From IMG/VR virus record IMGVR_UViG_3300014059_000004: a DNA stretch of 21,429 bases; one strand, 5' to 3'. The notes below the pieces were generated by a model. It did no database searches. It was not told the origin of the DNA and saw only the letters and a program-made list of their open reading frames with translations. Position 1 is the stretch's first letter, and each line of letters starts with the position of its first letter. Both the position numbers and the translations under genes were made by a program. Source of the stretch: a virus. Shown in pieces: positions 1 to 9,241 of this stretch.

Positions 1-2
1 CT

Positions 3-170
3 GACATCATCAATGTCTGCCGGAGTGAACTGTTCGAGATGATTCGCGAGGATCTCGACGCAGTGAAGTGGGACGAGCTCGACTTGGATGCCGTTGTTGC
101 ACACCCGATCGTCCACAAGATGATGGTGGAGCACCTCCGCGGGATCATCACTGACTTCACCGGGAAGTGA
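3..170 (+). CDS. 3' fragment of upstream gene (5' truncated by window)
   Basis: Open frame from the window edge; product ...DIINVCRSELFEMIREDLDAVKWDELDLDAVVAHPIVHKMMVEHLRGIITDFTGK. The TGA stop at 168-170 lies inside the first GTGAA box. Confidence 0.45.
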   Translation, partial: DIINVCRSELFEMIREDLDAVKWDELDLDAVVAHPIVHKMMVEHLRGIITDFTGK

Positions 171-202
171 ATAGTCGCTCCTGAAAGAGGTATACTAAGA
201 TC

Positions 203-370
203 ATGGACAAGCCCACCAAGAAGAGCAAGCGTGAGTTCATCCTCTGTCCCATCTGCGGTGCACGGTCGAAGAAGCTCTCATCGGAGTTCGGTGGTCTGGA
301 GACGCGGATGTGCACTGGCGGGTGCATCTTCAAGATCGACACGTGGATGAAGAAGCGAATTCGTCTGTGA
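203..370 (+). CDS. 55-aa zinc-ribbon-like small protein (CPICG...CTGGC)
   Basis: ATGG at 203 sits 6 nt after TATACT of the conserved unit; product MDKPTKKSKREFILCPICGARSKK...CTGGCIFKIDTWMKKRIRL. Below the ORF-track length cutoff. Stop TGA inside the next GTGAAT box. Confidence 0.6.
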   Translation: MDKPTKKSKREFILCPICGARSKKLSSEFGGLETRMCTGGCIFKIDTWMKKRIRL

Positions 371-402
371 ATCTTCACTCTTGAAAGAGGTATACTAGAA
401 TC

Positions 403-657
403 ATGGCGACCAAGAAGACCAAGAAGCCCGCACCCCAGCCCACCGACCTCGAGGCGGCGCTGAACATGCAGCTCGCAGAGGTCACAGAGGATGAACTTAC
501 CGCGGACGACGTGGAGACTGCGAGCAATGCAGAGAACTTTCTCTGTGAATTGATGCGAGCGTTCTACGGTCGTCCGGACATCTACAAGGTCCTGGAAACT
601 GCTGCGAACCTGTGCGCAGACATCCAGGCGCGAGGCGAAGAGCTCGATCTGGTGTAA
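403..657 (+). CDS. 84-aa acidic hypothetical protein
   Basis: Conserved promoter unit 367-405 followed by ATGG; ORF-track ORF; good GC3. Confidence 0.7.
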   Translation: MATKKTKKPAPQPTDLEAALNMQLAEVTEDELTADDVETASNAENFLCELMRAFYGRPDIYKVLETAANLCADIQARGEELDLV

Positions 658-727
658 TTCAGTCGCTCCTTAGCTTATACTGTAATCCACCAACGGACTT
701 CGACAGTCCACTGCAAAGAGAGAACGC

Positions 728-1000
728 ATGAACGTTTCGTTTTACCAGAAGTACCAGGATGTCATGGATCCCAGCCGGTACGTGGTTCCCATGCAGAAGG
801 GTTTGCAGAAGGGTTACCTCGACTGCCGGGTGTACTTCGATCGCTGCTTCGTCGGACGTGCCGAGATCTCGGAGTCGCTCCTGACCAACGAGGACGTGGG
901 CTTCAAGCTTCAGTTAACTGAAGAGCACGGGGTCGCAATAGCGGCAATTGCCTCGGTGGAAAGCCGAAGACGCAGGTTCGAATCCTGCCCCCGTGCCTAA
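728..1000 (+). CDS. 90-aa hypothetical ORF whose last ~25 codons overlap a tRNA-like element
   Basis: ATG preceded by AAGAGAG (SD-like) on a ~40-nt leader from TATACT at 676-681. The C-terminus ...SVESRRRRFESCPRA is the tRNA T-arm read as protein, so coding status is doubtful. Confidence 0.3.
   Translation: MNVSFYQKYQDVMDPSRYVVPMQKGLQKGYLDCRVYFDRCFVGRAEISESLLTNEDVGFKLQLTEEHGVAIAAIASVESRRRRFESCPRA
908..923. repeat. 16-bp perfect palindrome CTTCAGTTAACTGAAG immediately 5' of the tRNA-like gene
   Basis: Direct reading: CTTCAGTT and AACTGAAG are reverse complements. Confidence 0.8.
926..996 (+). tRNA. tRNA-like gene with non-canonical anticodon arm (candidate anticodon GAA)
   Basis: Acceptor 5' CACGGGG (926-932) pairs 7/7 with CCCCGTG (989-995). 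D-stem GCAA/TTGC with GG in the loop. T-arm GCAGG-TTCGAAT-CCTGC (972-988). No encoded CCA. The anticodon arm is imperfect: one C-A mismatch, G at position 33, a 3-nt variable loop, and 71 nt total. Confidence 0.45.
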
Positions 1001-1010
1001 GGATTCACGC

Positions 1011-1286
1011 ATGTCACGGTCAAAAGACGAACACAAGCTCGTCATCTACATCGCCACACCTCTTCGATGGCTCTTCTTCGGGCTCTACGATCCGCTCTTG
1101 TGGTGGGCCATGAAGCGGGTGACGAACACCATCAAGGTTCTTGTTCCTGACGTGGACATCACACGGTACCGTGAAGCAGGCGCTCTTGTCCTCGTGATAG
1201 ACGGCGAAAGAGTGGGTCAAGTCGCCGAGGCAGTCGGACATGTCCACGTTTGGATCGTCTCTTCGATCCAGAAGATCTGGTTGTAA
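1011..1286 (+). CDS. 91-aa hypothetical protein
   Basis: ATG with AAGGA 8 nt upstream, directly after the tRNA-like gene. GC3 about 65%. Competes with antisense ORF 1020-1364. Confidence 0.45.
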   Translation: MSRSKDEHKLVIYIATPLRWLFFGLYDPLLWWAMKRVTNTIKVLVPDVDITRYREAGALVLVIDGERVGQVAEAVGHVHVWIVSSIQKIWL

Positions 1287-1287
1287 C

Positions 1288-1536
1288 ATGGAACTCCGCT
1301 GGTTTTCTTTGCTTGCACTTTCGCTCGTCGTTTCGATCCTGTTTGTCATCGGCCTGTGGCTCAAAGAGCCGAAGCCCCCGCGAACCGTGAGGAAGATCGA
1401 ACGGACTTACGGACCTGACGGCGAGCCTGGTCCTCTACCACCCAAAGACCAGAAGTGGTTACATGAATCCCGGCGTTCTTTTTATCCTCTTCTTTGCAAT
1501 CCTCGGATTCGTCGGATTTGCGGGCGCTCTCGTTGA
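1288..1536 (+). CDS. 82-aa small protein with N-terminal transmembrane helix
   Basis: MELRWFSLLALSLVVSILFVIGLWLKEP...; internal ATG of track ORF 1240-1536, chosen because the hydrophobic segment starts there. Confidence 0.4.
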   Translation: MELRWFSLLALSLVVSILFVIGLWLKEPKPPRTVRKIERTYGPDGEPGPLPPKDQKWLHESRRSFYPLLCNPRIRRICGRSR

Positions 1537-1822
1537 ACGACGACACTCCAGGTACAAAGCTCAGCTCATCATCGAGCAGGAAGATCCAGGTTACCGTGCA
1601 TCTGGGAAGACGTACGTGGCCCGCATCGTGCCTGATAAGGCGCTGAATGAGGAGTACAAGTACTTCATAGATGATATATCCCAGATCCCAGATGCCTTTC
1701 ACAGGAGGATCGCAGCCAAAGAGCTAGACAAAGTCATCACTTTCTGGTGCAACTGTCGGTACGGTGCCAACAGGTGGACCGTGGAGGAAGACATTTATTC
1801 TCCGGCTCACGTTGACGAGTGA
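1463..1822 (+). CDS. 119-aa small protein with N-terminal transmembrane helix
   Basis: MNPGVLFILFFAILGFVGFAGALVERRH...; overlaps the previous ORF by 74 nt, so one of the two ends may be wrong. Confidence 0.45.
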   Translation: MNPGVLFILFFAILGFVGFAGALVERRHSRYKAQLIIEQEDPGYRASGKTYVARIVPDKALNEEYKYFIDDISQIPDAFHRRIAAKELDKVITFWCNCRYGANRWTVEEDIYSPAHVDE

Positions 1823-1854
1823 AAGGTCTATGGCGATTGAGTTAGTATTAGACC

Positions 1855-2223
1855 ATGGCAACACGCTCCCTCATCGGATACGAGAAGTCTGACGGTACCA
1901 TCGTCGTTTCGTACTGTCACTTCGACGGGTACCTGACCGGCGTCGGTGCAGATCTCCTGGCGTTGAAGCCCTCGGCTGTGAAAAAGATCATCGATGCCGG
2001 CGACATGAGCACGCTGAAGAGCGGACCATACACCCCAGTTGTCAAACCGAAGGTGTTCACTTCCCGCGAGGCTGCTCATACCTTCTTCAAGAATTCGTGG
2101 TGTGAATACTTCTACCTCCTGAGCCGCACGGGTCGGACGTGGTTTTACAACTGCGATTCGTCTGGCGTTTTTCACCCGCTCCGCGCCGCGGTGAACCAGG
2201 CGATCGAAAACGAAATGCGGTGA
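1855..2223 (+). CDS. 122-aa hypothetical protein
   Basis: Variant promoter unit GTGAAAGG...GAGTTAGTATTAGACC-ATGG; track ORF; stop TGA begins the next TGAACG box. Confidence 0.65.
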   Translation: MATRSLIGYEKSDGTIVVSYCHFDGYLTGVGADLLALKPSAVKKIIDAGDMSTLKSGPYTPVVKPKVFTSREAAHTFFKNSWCEYFYLLSRTGRTWFYNCDSSGVFHPLRAAVNQAIENEMR

Positions 2224-2255
2224 ACGCTCACGGCTGAACGAGGTATACTAGACTC

Positions 2256-2543
2256 ATGGACACCACGGGACTGCACCTCCTCAACCAGCTCTACATCATC
2301 GGAAGCGACAGTGCACTGAAGGCTGCGATGCAGCACCCGGACTGGGACGCTGGTTTCGATGCAGCGCTTCGGTTCAATGAACTTCCGTTTCGTCGGAAGG
2401 ACGTGTCTGACCTGGTCCTCCTGGCGTACCTCATCTCCGACCTCAGCTGTGAATTTTCCGTCGATGAGGATGGTCGACTGGTGTGTGAGTCACAGTACGA
2501 ATCGTGCGTTTGGTCTGACGGCATGTGGGTTACCGTCGACTGA
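2256..2543 (+). CDS. 95-aa hypothetical protein
   Basis: Unit TGAACGctcacggcTGAACGAGGTATACTagactcATGG; followed by palindromic element A. Confidence 0.7.
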   Translation: MDTTGLHLLNQLYIIGSDSALKAAMQHPDWDAGFDAALRFNELPFRRKDVSDLVLLAYLISDLSCEFSVDEDGRLVCESQYESCVWSDGMWVTVD

Positions 2544-2640
2544 TCACGTGAGGCCCACCGTTTAATCATCCGGATCAGTTAATGGTTACATACCTTCCGG
2601 CACCGTGATTAAACGGTGGGTCAACGGTGGGCTTCTCAGC
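2544..2640. repeat. Palindromic repeat element A (15-bp perfect inverted repeat CCCACCGTTTAATCA / TGATTAAACGGTGGG, 37-nt spacer)
   Basis: Inverted repeat arms at 2554-2568 and 2606-2620. Contains an ATCCGGAT palindrome and the boxes CACGTGAGGC and GGGTCAACGGTGGGCT that are shared with elements B and C. Confidence 0.75.
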
Positions 2641-2690
2641 AATTCATCTTCATTGTGAACTGCCGCAGCGATTCATGGTATACTAGAACC

Positions 2691-2951
2691 ATGGCAACCA
2701 AGCTGACTCTCACAGAAGTCAAGGTGCAGTTTCCCGGTGCTTGGGAATCGGAAATCGCAGGCCTGGATCCTGAGGATATCATGGATCTCCTGGGTGATAT
2801 GGCAGCCGGGGAATCGGAATACTGGGTTCACAACGGTACACTCTACGGACGCTCATGGTGGACTGCGCTTGGGTGGCACTACGGTGAATGGGACGGGACT
2901 TCTTGGTTCTGCCCGAATGCAGGGGAGGAAGTGTGTCCCTGGGGTGAGTGA
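2691..2951 (+). CDS. 86-aa hypothetical protein (MATKLTLTEV...)
   Basis: ATGG 6 nt after TATACT (tcATGGTATACTagaaccATGG). The track ORF 2616-2951 has an N-terminal extension that runs through repeat element A, which I rejected. Confidence 0.65.
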   Translation: MATKLTLTEVKVQFPGAWESEIAGLDPEDIMDLLGDMAAGESEYWVHNGTLYGRSWWTALGWHYGEWDGTSWFCPNAGEEVCPWGE

Positions 2952-2991
2952 CGCGGTGTAAATCATCGGCGATCTAGGTTATACTAGGCTC

Positions 2992-3327
2992 ATGGACACT
3001 AAGGCGAAGAAGGTTCGCAACTTCGTGGCGATCGCCATGGAGAAGCGTTGGGGCAAGAAGAGCAACGTTCACCGTCACCGTGCAGATCGTCGACCGAAGG
3101 ACGCTCGTCGTCACTGGTCCCGCGAGGAAGGATTACAGAGATGTGCCAATGTTTCACAATCGGCGGACCGTTCATCGGTGCTGACCCTGATTGCGCAGTT
3201 CACGGGGACGATGCGCAGGAACGCGATCGAGCGTTGGATTCACGGTTCGATGAGCTTCACGAGGAGATTGCACTTCTCCGGATGGAGATTGGGACTCTCC
3301 GCGATCTTCTCCAGGCACGAACTGTGA
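2992..3327 (+). CDS. 111-aa basic hypothetical protein (3' half overlaps an alternative frame)
   Basis: Unit ...ctaGGTTATACTaggctcATGG; N-terminus MDTKAKKVRNFVAIAMEKRWGKK is plausible; stop TGA inside a GTGAAT box. Confidence 0.4.
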   Translation: MDTKAKKVRNFVAIAMEKRWGKKSNVHRHRADRRPKDARRHWSREEGLQRCANVSQSADRSSVLTLIAQFTGTMRRNAIERWIHGSMSFTRRLHFSGWRLGLSAIFSRHEL

Positions 3328-3341
3328 ATCCTAACTCCTGA
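3141..3341 (+). CDS. 66-aa acidic coiled-coil protein in alternative frame
   Basis: ATG with GGAAGGA 8 nt upstream; product MCQCFTIGG...DELHEEIALLRMEIGTLRDLLQAR is very protein-like; stop TGA inside the next cTGAAAGAGG box. Confidence 0.4.
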   Translation: MCQCFTIGGPFIGADPDCAVHGDDAQERDRALDSRFDELHEEIALLRMEIGTLRDLLQARTVNPNS

Positions 3342-3359
3342 AAGAGGTATACTGAGATC

Positions 3360-3686
3360 ATGGCAATCGTCGACGCAGTGGTCATCAACGCAGCGAAGTT
3401 CCTGTGGAGTGGGAAGGTGGGCACGGCAGAGCTCTCGGATCTCCACGAGCAGGCTGTTGCAGAGCGTTGGGTCGATGTTCCGCGAGTCATGACGCTTGTG
3501 AACTTGTCGCGAGGAACGAAGCGAGTCTTCGCCGATCGCCGTGTCGTGAAAGACGATGGGGGTGATCCCGCTGGATGGTCCTGGACTTGCACTTCAGATC
3601 CCAACATGCAGGTCATCATCTACAACGATTTACGGTGCAACGTCACCCCTGAAAGAGGTACAGTAAGATCATGTCCAGTCCCCTGA
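3360..3686 (+). CDS. 108-aa hypothetical protein
   Basis: Unit cctGAAAGAGGTATACTgagatcATGG; the 3' end overlaps the next unit and start by 16 nt. Confidence 0.6.
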   Translation: MAIVDAVVINAAKFLWSGKVGTAELSDLHEQAVAERWVDVPRVMTLVNLSRGTKRVFADRRVVKDDGGDPAGWSWTCTSDPNMQVIIYNDLRCNVTPERGTVRSCPVP

Positions 3687-3898
3687 TGCTGCAGACCGAC
3701 TTCGAGATTCTCATCGACAACATCACAGATCTCGTGGAGGACGAGAGCAGGCTGCGCGCCATCTTTGCTGGTGAAATCATGCATGCACTCCACGATGGTC
3801 GCAAAGCGGTGCTGCTTCTCAGGAAGATTGCACCCTTCGTCAACGAGAGCACCGGTGGTGAGGTTGCTCGTTTTTTGAGCGATCTGGAACAGAAGTGA
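3671..3898 (+). CDS. 75-aa hypothetical protein
   Basis: Unit cctGAAAGAGGTACAGTaagatcATG; stop TGA inside a GTGAAC box. Confidence 0.65.
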   Translation: MSSPLMLQTDFEILIDNITDLVEDESRLRAIFAGEIMHALHDGRKAVLLLRKIAPFVNESTGGEVARFLSDLEQK

Positions 3899-3930
3899 AC
3901 AGTCAGACCTTAAAGAGGTACAGTAAGATC

Positions 3931-4224
3931 ATGGCACGGATCAACTGGTCGGAACCTAACGATATCGGCCGCAGCAATGCAATCTTCACCACGGAAGCAG
4001 CAGCTGGTTGGGAGGTGTATACCTACGATGCCTGGCCCGATCGGATCGAAGTCAACGCTCCTCAGTCGAGTCGTGTGAACATCGAGATCGAAGTCTCACG
4101 AGAGGAAGTTCGCGTATACGGTGAACATGCCTCGCGAGGTTACGGCGAAGCTTCTCCTTGTCAAGTGTACATCCCGTTCGAAGTGATGCGTTGCATCGTG
4201 GAATGGCAGGCTGCGCACCAGTGA
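3931..4224 (+). CDS. 97-aa hypothetical protein (MARINWSEP...)
   Basis: Unit GTGAACagtcagaccTTAAAGAGGTACAGTaagatcATGG at 3895-3933. I rejected the track's N-terminal extension 3895-. Confidence 0.65.
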   Translation: MARINWSEPNDIGRSNAIFTTEAAAGWEVYTYDAWPDRIEVNAPQSSRVNIEIEVSREEVRVYGEHASRGYGEASPCQVYIPFEVMRCIVEWQAAHQ

Positions 4225-4256
4225 ACAGTCAACCTTGAAAGAGGTATATTAAGACC

Positions 4257-4445
4257 ATGGCTGCTCCCTACAAGCGCGGAACGAAGCTGCAGTACGTCGG
4301 TGCACATCACAGTCATGGTCCCGTCACTTACGTGAAGTGGCATGGTTTTCTTCGAGGAGCACTCATCACCGTGCGCTTCCCGGACGGGGTGAAGAGAGTC
4401 GTTCACGTGGACGAAGTCTACCCGGTTGTGAATTTACCCTCGTGA
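4257..4445 (+). CDS. 62-aa hypothetical protein
   Basis: Unit GTGAACagtcaaccTTGAAAGAGGTATATTaagaccATGG at 4221-4259. Confidence 0.65.
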   Translation: MAAPYKRGTKLQYVGAHHSHGPVTYVKWHGFLRGALITVRFPDGVKRVVHVDEVYPVVNLPS

Positions 4446-4463
4446 AAGAGGTATACTGAGATC

Positions 4464-4697
4464 ATGGACAAGGCAACGTTGAACCGGTTGTACAGCGATT
4501 ACCATGCTCAGATCGTCCTCTTGGCACGTGACCTCAAGGAGGTGAAGCGCAGCTTGGACACGATCGTTCACATCCGTGAGCAGCTCATGCTCGAGGCCGT
4601 CCATTTCGAGGAGGAACTTTTGGAGGAAGGCAGCGACGAAGTGCAAAACCTCATCGATGTCATCCCGCTTCTCCAGATGGAAGTTGACGATCGCTGA
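4464..4697 (+). CDS. 77-aa acidic coiled-coil protein
   Basis: Unit GTGAATttaccctcgTGAAAGAGGTATACTgagatcATGG. Confidence 0.7.
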   Translation: MDKATLNRLYSDYHAQIVLLARDLKEVKRSLDTIVHIREQLMLEAVHFEEELLEEGSDEVQNLIDVIPLLQMEVDDR

Positions 4698-4733
4698 GTG
4701 AATCTTCACCCCTGATTGAGGTATACTAGAACC

Positions 4734-4940
4734 ATGGACACCAAGCAACTCGCTGCGAAGGCCGCCAACGCCATCTCCGACCTGGTCCTCGAGGATGAGT
4801 ACACTGTCGACATCGACCAGGTGGTGGGTGGTCTTGACGACGACGGAAAGTTCACAATGGAGAAGTTGTTGACCATCAACACCAAGCTTGTGTACGAAGT
4901 CACCGTGACCGCGAAGGTCGTGAACCTCGACGACGAGTGA
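4734..4940 (+). CDS. 68-aa acidic hypothetical protein (MDTKQLAAKAANA...)
   Basis: Unit GTGAATCTTCACccctgattGAGGTATACTagaaccATGG at 4698-4736; I rejected the track's N-terminal extension. Confidence 0.7.
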   Translation: MDTKQLAAKAANAISDLVLEDEYTVDIDQVVGGLDDDGKFTMEKLLTINTKLVYEVTVTAKVVNLDDE

Positions 4941-5379
4941 AAAGCTTCCCCTCCTTGTGGTATACTTAACTTATCTTAAAGCTTGCTGGAATGAGGGTGC
5001 GCACCAGGATAAAAACTCACTCCCAATGCCGAGCACTGTCGAAAAGGTTCCGGGTAGGAACGCCTGCAAGGGTGCACAGTGAATCGATTCGGTTCGACTC
5101 CGAAGCTTGGCTCGAAGAGATCGACGGTTGGTCACCGTCGGTTGAATCCCTGGGTGATCCAAAGCTGGCTGACCACTTGCATTAAATCACCCAGGAAAGT
5201 CTCATTCGTCTAGTTGGACCAGGACGCCGGCGTCAGTCGGAGACGGAGGATCATAGCCTCCATGAGACGCAACTGTGAAAGAGAAGCGCAGGTTCGAATC
5301 CTGCTCGCCGGGCGATTGCCAGGCGAAAGTGTCGAAGACGGTGCACGCTCTTGCTAACTCACCTCATGAGGAGCACAGA
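4941..5379 (+). ncRNA. Structured non-coding island behind an extended -10 promoter (TGG-TATACT, 4958-4966), carrying tRNA-like modules
   Basis: No credible ORF. Three T-loop-like motifs: GGTTCGACTCC (5091-5101), GGTTGAATCC (5140-5149) and GGTTCGAATCC (5291-5301). A 10-bp stem CCTGGGTGAT/ATCACCCAGG (5149-5158 and 5185-5194). An anticodon-like hairpin GGAGG-ATCATAG-CCTCC (5245-5261, CAT in the loop). A candidate class-II-length tRNA at 5028-5112, where acceptor GCCGAGC pairs 7/7 with GCTTGGC including one G-U pair. The 3' module 5288-5312 (T-arm plus acceptor strand) is 18/18 identical to the T-arm of tRNA-like gene 926-996. Confidence 0.35.
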
Positions 5380-5601
5380 ATGGAATTTCCGAAAGTTACT
5401 CTACCGATTGATCCCGAGCTGGTGCAGACTACCATCAACATTCTGCACGACTTCATCGCCGAAAAAACTCGCGAGGCGTGGGTGGCTCAAGAACTCTTGA
5501 AGTTCATCAGGAGCACATGTCCCCACAAGAACGTTAAGCGCGACGGCGACATGTGCTCCGAATGCGGGTATACCCAGTACAACAACGATCCGAACTATTA
5601 G
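5380..5601 (+). CDS. 73-aa protein with C-terminal CxxxK...CxxC metal-binding motif
   Basis: ATG with GAGGAG 7 nt upstream (classical SD). The track ORF 5275-5601 has an N-terminal extension through the tRNA-like T-arm (RRFESC), which I rejected. Confidence 0.5.
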   Translation: MEFPKVTLPIDPELVQTTINILHDFIAEKTREAWVAQELLKFIRSTCPHKNVKRDGDMCSECGYTQYNNDPNY

Positions 5602-5603
5602 AC

Positions 5604-5864
5604 ATGACTGACGAGCAATGCACTTTCTGCGGGCAGCGGAAGAGTGGAACGCTTAAGCCAGTGATTCTCACCAATCCGGGCGAGGGATGCACGTACGGCT
5701 TGAGGCACGAGTGGGTGCAGATCTCTGTGAAAAGAACTGCAAGGCCAAAGTACACCGTCCCGCCGAAGTGGCGTCCCTCGTGGCGAGAGGCATGGTCAGA
5801 ACTGTTCATGTGTCGCTTTGATCATCGATGTCGTCGGCTGATATCTGTGAACTGCTCGAGCTGA
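5604..5864 (+). CDS. 86-aa Cys-rich hypothetical protein (MTDEQCTFCGQ...)
   Basis: ATG 3 nt after the previous stop; stop TGA inside the next cTGAACGAGG box. Confidence 0.45.
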   Translation: MTDEQCTFCGQRKSGTLKPVILTNPGEGCTYGLRHEWVQISVKRTARPKYTVPPKWRPSWREAWSELFMCRFDHRCRRLISVNCSS

Positions 5865-5882
5865 ACGAGGTATACTAGAACC

Positions 5883-6152
5883 ATGAAGATCATCATCGCT
5901 GGCGTCCCCAACGAAGGCAAGACGACCATTGCCCAGTTCATCACCCACGCTCTTCGCGATGCCGGGTTCGCTGTGAATCACACAGATTGTGATAGCGGTC
6001 TCGTGGCGGACGAAGCCTCAGGCCTCCAGCGCAGCCGCCTCGAGGCAGTGGGCAAGAGGCTCGGACCCATCACCGTGGCGACCACTTCCATTGGCCGCTC
6101 GGGCTGCACGGTGATCATCCCACCGCCCGAAGGTGGTTTACCATTGGTCTGA
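5883..6152 (+). CDS. 89-aa P-loop (Walker A GVPNEGKTT) protein, probably truncated
   Basis: Unit cTGAACGAGGTATACTagaaccATG. The Walker A motif is at residues 7-14 with no recognisable Walker B. The last ~8 codons and the stop are encoded by the repeat box GGTGGTTTACCA..TCTGA, shared with the 3' end of ORF 10643-10981. Confidence 0.6.
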   Translation: MKIIIAGVPNEGKTTIAQFITHALRDAGFAVNHTDCDSGLVADEASGLQRSRLEAVGKRLGPITVATTSIGRSGCTVIIPPPEGGLPLV

Positions 6153-8348: not shown

Positions 8349-8386
8349 CAGTGAATATTCTTCGTTAAAAGAGGTACAGTAAGACC

Positions 8387-9241
8387 ATGGCAATCACCAC
8401 CACCTACGGGAATCCCCGCAACGGCGATCAGGTTACCACGATCAACTTCGAAGGTCGCGTGGTCTCGGTCGACAATGTCACCGAGCGTCGGAACTGGAGC
8501 GACACGCTGGACTACAGCGACTGGCGGATGACTGACTGCACCATCGCCACTGTGTACCTGGGACGCTACGGTGCCAAGAACACCTACGATCGCTACGATG
8601 CTGCCACGATGCCCCGCGAGCGCTACGGGGCGCTGGTGGCTGACAAGCGTCGGTCGCCCATCGTGGAACTTCCCGTTCACGAGCGCTTCCTGGAGGTCGA
8701 CGTGACGAACATGTGGGCATGGCGCACTGGCAAGGTCGACGTAGCGGTCGCCGATGCGGACGAGGCCACGTATCCCGAGCTCAACCACGATTACGCAGAG
8801 TACATGGCTCACATCGCCAACGAGCGGAAGCGTGACGAGGAACGTCGGCGTGCCCGAGAGGAGGCCGAGCTGGCTGAGCGCATCCGTGAGGAAGAGAACC
8901 GACCGGTCATCGGGAAGAAGATGATCGTGGCTCGTGGTCGCAAGGTGAAGGTCGGAACTGTGGGCACGGTTGCATTCGTCAGGGACGGTAGCGTCCTCCT
9001 GAAGCCCGATGCCACGTGGACGGATCGGAAGGTCGGCGGTGTCTGGGTGCAGGCTCACAACCTGGAGCTTCGTCGGCCGTGCACTGCTCACGAGGATTGT
9101 GCAGCCTCGCCCGAGCTGGGTGAAGCTTGCGTCGGTCAGAAGCACATCCACCTCTTAAACGAGGCCCACTCGGGCTTCACAGAAAAACTTTGGGTTATTG
9201 GATGGGGATTACCACCATCCGGACTCAAGGCGACACCGTGA
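8387..9241 (+). CDS. 284-aa hypothetical protein with central charged ER/K-rich helix and C-terminal C-x2-HEDC motif
   Basis: Unit GTGAATattcttcgTTAAAAGAGGTACAGTaagaccATGG. Longest gene of the array. The C-terminus RRPCTAHEDCAASPELGEACVG is shared with ORF 13707-14135. Confidence 0.75.
   Translation: MAITTTYGNPRNGDQVTTINFEGRVVSVDNVTERRNWSDTLDYSDWRMTDCTIATVYLGRYGAKNTYDRYDAATMPRERYGALVADKRRSPIVELPVHERFLEVDVTNMWAWRTGKVDVAVADADEATYPELNHDYAEYMAHIANERKRDEERRRAREEAELAERIREEENRPVIGKKMIVARGRKVKVGTVGTVAFVRDGSVLLKPDATWTDRKVGGVWVQAHNLELRRPCTAHEDCAASPELGEACVGQKHIHLLNEAHSGFTEKLWVIGWGLPPSGLKATP

Follow-up and report, generated by a model that had tools for sequence, protein, structure and literature searches.

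Does the cloverleaf between two small open reading frames (ORFs) of an uncultured virus-like genome encode a tRNA that decodes, or has a tRNA-derived structure taken on another role there? The question is raised by positions 925-996 (plus strand) of a stretch of 21,429 nucleotides (nt), here called the window, from the IMG/VR virus record IMGVR_UViG_3300014059_000004. This element is probably a tRNA-derived processing or mimic element and not a working tRNA-Phe. More specifically, the comparison of related loci gives about an even chance that 925-996 is a tRNA-derived, non-decoding tRNA-like RNA which is selected in this lineage and which RNase P together with a 3' tRNase would excise.

The cloverleaf and its conservation

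ARAGORN places a tRNA-Phe(gaa) at 926-997 of the window. The covariance-model check suggested in the preliminary description of this locus (Infernal, Rfam family RF00005) returns a score of 39.2 bits (E = 3e-5), the gathering score being 29. This is the sole gathering-level match in the window, where neither ARAGORN nor Rfam reported a transfer-messenger RNA. The arms on which that description relied, namely an acceptor stem paired 7/7, a D-arm GCAA/TTGC with GG in its loop and a T-arm GCAGG-TTCGAAT-CCTGC, are all present (Table 1). The fold z-score of the element is -2.9, and -4.1 when G925 (position -1 of the tRNA-like structure, G-1) is included. The cloverleaf exceeds chance expectation because the ARAGORN call, the RF00005 score, the fold z-score and the conservation with covariation among relatives all support it, and the view that a genuine tRNA-like gene is present has held.

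The comparative evidence comes from 22 related metagenomic loci retrieved through homologues of the upstream ORF, ORF1, in Logan, European Nucleotide Archive and JGI assemblies, a count that includes the window's own locus (L166, a 92-kb contig of SRR1145916; one mismatch in 11 kb). In all 22 loci the element directly follows the ORF1 core. Nine distinct element sequences of two types, A and B, were aligned, and the structure tested comprised the pair between G-1 and position 73 as well as the acceptor (7 base pairs, bp), D (4 bp), third (5 bp) and T (5 bp) stems, with the partners slid by one to three columns as controls. Pairing was kept in 99.5% of cells across the nine sequences, compared with 38-45% in the slid controls. 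Four compensatory pairs were seen (acceptor 5-68, G-C to U-A; D stem, A-U to G-C; third stem, U-A to C-G and G-C to A-U), and where one type closes the third stem with U·G, the other does so with C-G. The acceptor, D and T helices are present in the element and its relatives alike, and every member has the elbow features, with a T-loop of TTCGAAT or TTCAAAT and GG (G18 G19) in the D-loop. Similarly, polymorphisms in the protein tails of ORF1 cluster members map to the element as wobble-compatible or loop changes. With a covariance model of the family (R1), members score 78-102 bits and canonical tRNAs at most 40 bits; no second family copy was found with this model in the retrieved loci, where a second tRNA-like element scores only 20 bits.

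Within types, the pairwise divergence of the element is 4.3%, as against 13.3% at third and 5.9% at first and second codon positions of the adjacent ORF core, the pairs not being independent of one another. Because it changes about three times more slowly than neighbouring third codon positions, the element is, as far as the alignments show, under selection as RNA, and this roughly threefold deficit of substitutions counts both against protein-level constraint and against a decaying pseudogene. A functionless tRNA remnant, left from a tRNA-rich region of distant relatives and kept by linkage, would fit the low Rfam score (39 bits, with type B below threshold), the non-canonical anticodon loop, the loss of A14 and the one acceptor mismatch in L013, as well as the arrays of normal tRNAs that distant relatives carry among similar small genes and the several degenerate tRNA-like modules at a nearby locus (about 4973-5379). 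Such decay is nevertheless quite improbable, as the element changes more slowly even than the first and second codon positions beside it, all observed substitutions keep pairing or sit in loops, the place is the same in all 22 ORF1-carrying loci, and both divergent forms keep the acceptor, D and T arms.

Type A elements score 32-43 bits with Rfam and type B elements are not reported, whereas 18 canonical tRNAs of distant relatives reach 46-71 bits, all above the element. A distant protein relative of ORF 8387-9241 lies on IMG/VR viral contigs of up to 278 kb, which have ordinary tRNA genes. No DNA similarity to GenBank phages was found for window 1-6000 or 700-1300. The element alone, searched against the same phages by BLAST, matched only T-arm-centred pieces of assorted phage tRNAs and gave no isotype; its best match was the 3' half of a Cluster M phage tRNA-Trp with the acceptor out of register. 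Exact and pattern scans of IMG/VR and JGI metagenomes returned ordinary tRNAs only and no family members, and in those tRNAs GCAATTGC covers the end of the D stem and the anticodon stem. At the protein level, tblastn of the 284-amino-acid (aa) ORF of the window and of a relative's 432-aa ORF found no match among GenBank phages, and the sole such protein match is a relative's MoxR-like ATPase, which matches large phages at about 30% identity.

The third arm and decoding

A functional tRNA-Phe with anticodon GAA was among the options of the preliminary description. It would be read from a 4-bp stem (TCGG 953-956/CCGA 964-967) and a 7-nt loop UGGAAAG with G at position 33, perhaps altered against host anticodon nucleases. 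For the window and for 13 relatives the ARAGORN result is Phe(gaa), the Rfam score exceeds the gathering threshold, and phage tRNAs are known with anticodon-loop substitutions, for which an escape from host tRNases has been suggested (van den Berg et al., 2023, PMC10264068). Those tRNAs are phage-borne and, like the element, depart from the canonical form mainly in the anticodon loop; they keep, however, a 7-nt loop and a usable anticodon and are proposed decoders, whereas the loop of the element has 5 or 10 nt and its "anticodon" is polymorphic.

The loop letters, G33 and the unpaired C952·A968 are as first described, but the 4-bp stem and the 3-nt variable loop gave way to a 5-bp stem, a pentaloop and a 4-nt variable loop (AGAC), which the comparative data favour. 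Covariation pairs U957 with G963, and the minimum free energy (MFE) fold of the element does the same, so that a 5-bp stem carries the pentaloop GGAAA. C or A stands at position 952, in no case paired with A968, and the position therefore behaves as position 26. The type-A loop is GGAAA or GAAAA, and the putative wobble base is polymorphic (G/A) on several backgrounds, in L028 at the DNA level and as K for E in 8 of about 22 full-length protein variants, with the result that the anticodon would be GAA or AAA among near-identical genomes. To our knowledge, an AAA anticodon is not normally used in bacteria. The GAAAA allele also breaks a likeness proposed earlier between the loop and a promoter-spacer box of the window, which extends over only 5 nt (GAAAG).

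In type B (L013/14, L025, L167) the acceptor, D and T arms are kept and the third arm consists of a CCGAC/GUCGG stem with a 10-nt loop, UACAGUGAUU; neither ARAGORN nor Rfam calls a tRNA there. This form occurs behind an ORF1 N-terminus identical to that of the window (P0023), and the two forms are thus exchanged between closely similar genomes. None of the members has U33 in a loop of 7 nt, G taking the place of this near-universal base in the Phe reading. Position 14 is U (type A, L013) or C (L025), so the U8-A14 pair is not formed even though U8 is present. The stretch from D stem to T stem measures 20 nt, compared with 22-23 nt in canonical tRNAs, and the Infernal alignment to RF00005 requires two deleted positions in the anticodon arm. 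Moreover, the discriminator is C or U, and bacterial tRNA-Phe typically has A73. Because no member combines a 7-nt loop with U33 and A14 is missing, a decoding tRNA-Phe appears unlikely on these sequences, and with the polymorphic wobble base, the homologous 10-nt loop and the score below 18 canonical tRNAs also weighed, we hold it to be very improbable. The label "tRNA-Phe" is an artefact of loop counting.

Pentaloops of phage lambda boxB follow the pattern GNRNA (GAAAA, GAAGA), and the type-A loop G[G/A]AAA on its 5-bp stem fits this pattern with the variable base at N. Unlike boxB, the hairpin is closed by U·G, lies within a cloverleaf and has an unrelated 10-nt loop in type B, and no N-like protein or nut context was identified.

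Routine annotation as "tRNA-Phe", the label that gene finders give, would inflate the phage tRNA repertoire and arguments from codon usage, whereas the comparison of relatives reveals a selected RNA which almost certainly has no decoding function. A practical criterion is the combination of loop-size polymorphism with stem covariation, which separates tRNA-like elements of this kind from true tRNAs and from pseudogenes.

Proposed excision from a message and the His-type acceptor end

A tRNA-derived regulatory or processing element, another option in the preliminary description, is the best supported, given the purifying selection, the kept acceptor, T and D arms, and the fixed position between the ORF1 core and the Shine-Dalgarno sequence (SD) of ORF2. 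The sequences speak neither for nor against a decoy, the remaining option there. In the mechanism that we consider most likely, a message with ORF1, the element and ORF2 would be transcribed from the promoter-like site at 652-681. Within this message the element would be recognised through the features of tRNA processing that it keeps: the 7-bp acceptor stem with G-1:C73, the canonical T-arm, the D-arm G18 G19 of the elbow, and U8. The third arm would be only a structural hairpin, with a 5-bp stem and a loop of 5 nt here and 10 nt in the alternative allele. Host RNase P would cut on the 5' side, at or next to G-1, and a 3' tRNase would cut after C996; an enzyme of the RNase Z type is proposed because CCA is not encoded 3' of the element, where CUA stands instead. 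The two cuts would leave ORF1 and ORF2 on separate messages, that of ORF2 beginning a few nt ahead of its SD, and would set free a stable RNA of about 72 nt, to which CCA could be added and which would possibly act in trans. Excision is preferred because the acceptor/T minihelix, the elbow and U8 are kept while decoding features are lost, and because the position before the ORF2 SD is fixed; selection on the D-arm and the third stem suggests that the released RNA may also have a role in trans.

The closest parallels are the t-elements of plant mitochondria, which direct cleavage of mRNAs by RNase P and RNase Z, in-frame cases included (Forner et al., 2007, PMC1920247). Like the element, they are non-canonical cloverleaves with a perfectly conserved T-arm (GGTTCRANYCC), and they lie within a longer protein-coding transcript at the boundary of a coding region, as the element presumably does. 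Those in nad6 and ccmC lie within the reading frame and lead to stop-less mRNAs, and the ORF1 frame of the window likewise runs through the element. Unlike t-elements, the element belongs to a phage-like genome of a bacterium and its processing is a prediction; its whole cloverleaf, D-arm and third stem included, is conserved with covariation, it has a His-type G-1:C73, and an SD follows within 3 nt. A further comparison is offered by tRNA-Other of Bacillus cereus (Rogers et al., 2012, PMC3399842). This pseudo-tRNA, which serves as a recruited structural module within a larger RNA, is likewise tRNA-derived, still predicted by gene finders and without a role in translation. That gene, however, is chromosomal, flanks a genomic island and has a regulatory role established by experiment, whereas the element stands between two small phage ORFs and is known by its sequence.

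Several points weigh against excision as proposed. For a pure processing signal, conservation of the D-arm or the third stem is no obvious requirement. A cut on the 5' side would deprive ORF1 of its stop codon here, which in bacteria normally triggers ribosome rescue, although stop-less mRNAs after t-element cleavage are tolerated in plant mitochondria (PMC1920247). In addition, the nine distinct sequences fall into two types, so that the covariation comes from few independent events, and an A·G mismatch interrupts the acceptor stem of L013/L014. Should processing take place in this way, the element would be to a bacterial virus what tRNA punctuation and t-elements are to organelles, and would provide a separate SD-led message in a phage whose genes are mostly promoter-proximal and leaderless.

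The acceptor end points to a further possibility. G stands at -1 in all nine distinct sequences and in six linker contexts, among them fourfold-degenerate codon positions and one non-coding context, and it pairs with position 73, which is C in eight sequences and U in one (L026/27). The type-B loop holds GUG within its 10 nt (GUGAU), presumably as in the anticodon loops of tRNA-His such as that of E. coli, whereas type A has no GUG in loop context. In bacterial tRNA-His, as in the element, an extra G-1 pairs with discriminator C73 to give an 8-bp acceptor stem. Bacterial His identity consists mainly of G-1 and C73, and histidyl-tRNA synthetase (HisRS) charges microhelices with this pair (PMC9976931). 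G-1:C73 is also found in tRNA-like structures (TLSs) of plant viruses that can be charged by HisRS (PMC9976931). The element differs from tRNA-His in having no GUG anticodon in a 7-nt loop, the likeness being one of sequence, and from viral TLSs in lacking both a pseudoknotted acceptor and a location at the 3' terminus of a viral RNA genome. The His-type acceptor end is as such a lead, not a demonstration.

On this basis the released RNA, once CCA had been added, might act in trans as a tRNA mimic through its tRNA-His-type end, being charged by HisRS or binding or titrating a tRNA-binding factor of the host (a nuclease of defence, an enzyme of tRNA modification or a synthetase, for example), with the third-arm loop as a swappable specificity or a neutral module. 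This would be compatible with excision and would extend it, since excision would still be needed. The constancy of G-1 across linkers, some of them coding in different codon positions, its pairing with C73 or U73, the match to the identity elements by which HisRS charges microhelices (PMC9976931), GUGAU in the type-B loop, selection on the whole cloverleaf and not just the acceptor/T minihelix, and the exchange of two loop types between otherwise similar genomes are all in its favour. We nevertheless consider it unlikely: the anticodon also adds to His identity in vivo (PMC9976931) and GUG is missing from the loop context of type A, the -1:73 pair varies only from G-C to G-U and shows no true covariation, no isotype emerged from BLAST, and no sequences complementary to either third-arm loop (antisense or kissing partners) were found beyond chance. 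A wider version, in which the phage lineage keeps a family of non-decoding His-acceptor-type tRNA mimics with a swappable loop (a GNRA-like pentaloop or one of 10 nt), excised by host enzymes and acting in trans as HisRS substrates or as decoys or sponges for a tRNA-binding defence or modification factor of the host, with the non-coding locus at about 4973-5379 and its further anticodon-less tRNA-like modules following the same strategy, is a still more speculative and decidedly doubtful extrapolation from sequence. Should the released RNA act in trans through its His-type end, it would be a phage example among the few tRNA mimics with non-translational roles.

Flanking genes, the junction and other features of the window

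Table 1. Features of the tRNA-like element and its surroundings (window coordinates)
Feature	Position	Strand	Evidence
Promoter-like site of the putative ORF1/element transcript: GTGTAA 652-657, 18-nt spacer, TATACT 676-681	652-681	+	Motif family, kept in relatives
Hairpin in the 5' untranslated region upstream of ORF1, GGACU-UCGAC-AGUCC	695-709	+	Identical in most relatives
ORF1 conserved core, 63 aa ending ...GFKLQL	728-916	+	Codon-position GC, 30 homologous proteins
Perfect 16-nt palindrome CTTCAGTTAACTGAAG	908-923	.	Left arm in ORF1 codons K-L-Q, right arm in linker
Hypervariable linker between ORF1 core and element, ACTGAAGA in the window	917-924	+	Alignment of relatives
tRNA-like element	925-996	+	ARAGORN, Rfam, 22 related loci, pairing/covariation, slow divergence
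Eighth acceptor pair, G-1 with C996	925, 996	+	Comparative data
Acceptor stem, CACGGGG 926-932/CCCCGTG 989-995, 7/7 paired; discriminator C996	926-932, 989-996	+	Sequence
U8 C9	933-934	+	
D-arm, GCAA 935-938/TTGC 948-951, loop TAGCGGCAA with GG	935-951	+	Sequence
C952, position 26	952	+	Comparative data
Third arm, 5-bp stem and pentaloop GGAAA 958-962	953-967	+	Comparative data, MFE
Third-stem pairs U953-A967, C-G, G-C, G-C and closing U957·G963	953-957, 963-967	+	Comparative data
Variable loop AGAC (4 nt)	968-971	+	
T-arm, GCAGG 972-976, TTCGAAT 977-983, CCTGC 984-988	972-988	+	Sequence
TAA stop of extended ORF1 (998-1000) overlapping SD AAGGA of ORF2 (999-1003)	998-1003	+	Sequence
ORF2, 91 aa, SD-led	1011-1286	+	Codon-position GC 0.59/0.36/0.67, relatives' gene tables

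The promoter-like site upstream of ORF1 (Table 1) has the form GTG[T/C]AA ... TTA(TACT/AAGT/GAGT/CAGT) in relatives, which fits TANNNT. It is followed by a leader of about 45 nt with a hairpin before the ATG at 728, unlike the leaderless units elsewhere in the window. The sequences suggest that the leader hairpin is conserved; L013 has a different self-complementary sequence, GGCAGCUGCC, in its place. The homologues of ORF1 (30 sequences in seven clusters) are conserved only to residue 63, beyond which the protein follows the sequence of the RNA element or stops. A profile search for more distant ORF1 homologues found none, and the AF2 model of ORF1 (predicted local distance difference test, pLDDT, 65) gave no significant fold or sequence match in PDB. 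Pfam returned no family for ten window ORFs including ORF1, and PHROG two weak matches, to families of unknown function and neither of them for ORF1.

The preliminary description placed the element in the C-terminus of ORF 728-1000, and this ORF does end in ...RRRRFESCPRA before its stop. Its GC content by codon position is that of a coding sequence at 728-925 (0.56/0.29/0.79) and shows no coding periodicity at 926-1000 (0.60/0.64/0.60). The linker is 5, 8, 12 or 16 nt long in relatives and carries the ORF1 stop in L021-23, 4 nt before the element; the stop also precedes the element in P0013, P0026 and P0028-30, lies 16 nt inside it in L024, and follows it in the window and the remaining loci. 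Because the stop may lie before, inside or after the element, their overlap is, on the comparison of relatives, incidental. Across the element, two of the three frames contain no stop codon. Selection for read-through of the ORF was considered and rejected.

The perfect 16-bp palindrome that was pointed out immediately before the element is present, but it proved neither conserved nor statistically remarkable. Only the closest relatives, L026-28 and L168, retain its arms, around a centre that differs, and the arms are lost in L015-20/L170, L021-24, L013 and L025; the window has two 16-nt palindromes where 0.47 would be expected (P about 0.085). Its candidacy as a conserved part of the element was rejected. 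The second perfect palindrome, CCAATATATATATTGG, is at 18490-18505.

On its 3' side the element is followed by an SD within 3 nt and by the ORF2 ATG after 14 nt, as it is preceded by the ORF1 core at a distance of 8 nt. The junction CCTAAGGATT, SD included, is conserved in all type-A loci, even with a different gene downstream. ORF2 has no promoter unit of its own, unlike most genes in the region. Some relatives have a 432-aa ORF at the same junction (L170 1053-2351, L015 5830-7128, L168 10284-11582), the C-terminal 91 aa or so of which correspond to ORF2 of the window, and L170 is collinear with an insertion of about 1 kb right after the junction. From this comparison ORF2 of the window looks like a short version, about 1 kb having been lost or gained precisely where the junction lies.

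These shifts could also be explained if the element were a DNA-level site, that is, a junction of recombination or integration (attP-like, or the boundary between modules) with no more than a likeness to a tRNA. Gene content does change right after the element and SD (91-aa or 432-aa ORF, and the insertion in L170), the two element types are swapped between similar backgrounds, and homing-endonuclease genes vary nearby in relatives. Such a site is hardly credible, however, as the gene tables of about 20 kb around the element contain no integrase domain, no cellular tRNA has the same 3' half, and the compensatory changes in four helices point to pairing in RNA and not to a DNA motif. A genome scan for a host donor tRNA, using the T-arm and the 3' strand of the acceptor, gave four unrelated matches. 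On the chromosome of Kitasatospora sp. KL5 (L162 6182-6257, minus strand), there is a tRNA to which ARAGORN assigns no type and whose "anticodon" has four bases (cgac), that is, an enlarged anticodon loop; it has its T-arm and acceptor 3' strand in common with the element, to which it is probably not related. Relatives also vary, in their upstream region, in whether genes for GIY-YIG and Endonuclease VII are present.

Elsewhere in the window, more than 25 copies of a promoter-like unit of about 40 nt lie on the plus strand between 160 and 14470, with the form GTGAAY - N - CTGAAAGAGG - TATACT - 6 nt - ATG(G). Examples are found at 167-205, 3324-3362, 4221-4259, 8351-8389 and 14424-14462; the spacer holds GAAAGAGG, and each unit precedes a small plus-strand ORF. 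Most genes of the window therefore seem to be served by a promoter of their own and to start without a leader. The motif GGTATACT-N5-CATG is common to the window and distant IMG/VR relatives.

One such unit (GTGAAA 4937/TATACT 4961) opens the region 4937-5379 and is followed by about 400 nt without coding periodicity. An ORF called there at 4991-5185 has a codon-position GC of 0.55/0.49/0.58, and its frame is not conserved in L013 or L170. Several tRNA-like modules lie in this region (at 5028-5111, 5199-5269 and 5288-5311). A clean cloverleaf at 5199-5268, whose "anticodon" arm has a 5-bp stem and a 4-nt loop, is followed by a hairpin identical to the T-arm of the element at 925-996. As an alternative, ARAGORN proposes an 87-nt D-armless "tRNA-Met(cat)" at 5227-5313, and the region has no match in Rfam. 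Four differences separate it from its homologue in L013, three of them within a single 7-nt loop (AUCAUAG to AUCGUAC).

Three tandem paralogous ORFs of 267, 264 and 241 aa occupy 14969-17482 on the minus strand, with a period of about 600 nt and many shared repeat families (D8-D19); none of the three has a Pfam or PHROG match. At 14815-14975, in the gap between the plus- and minus-strand gene blocks and after a GC-rich region of terminator-like hairpins (about 14670-14760), there are at least seven direct repeats of AAATTTCAC, which read GTGAAATTT on the minus strand and resemble the -35-like GTGAA. This array could be an operator or iteron array.

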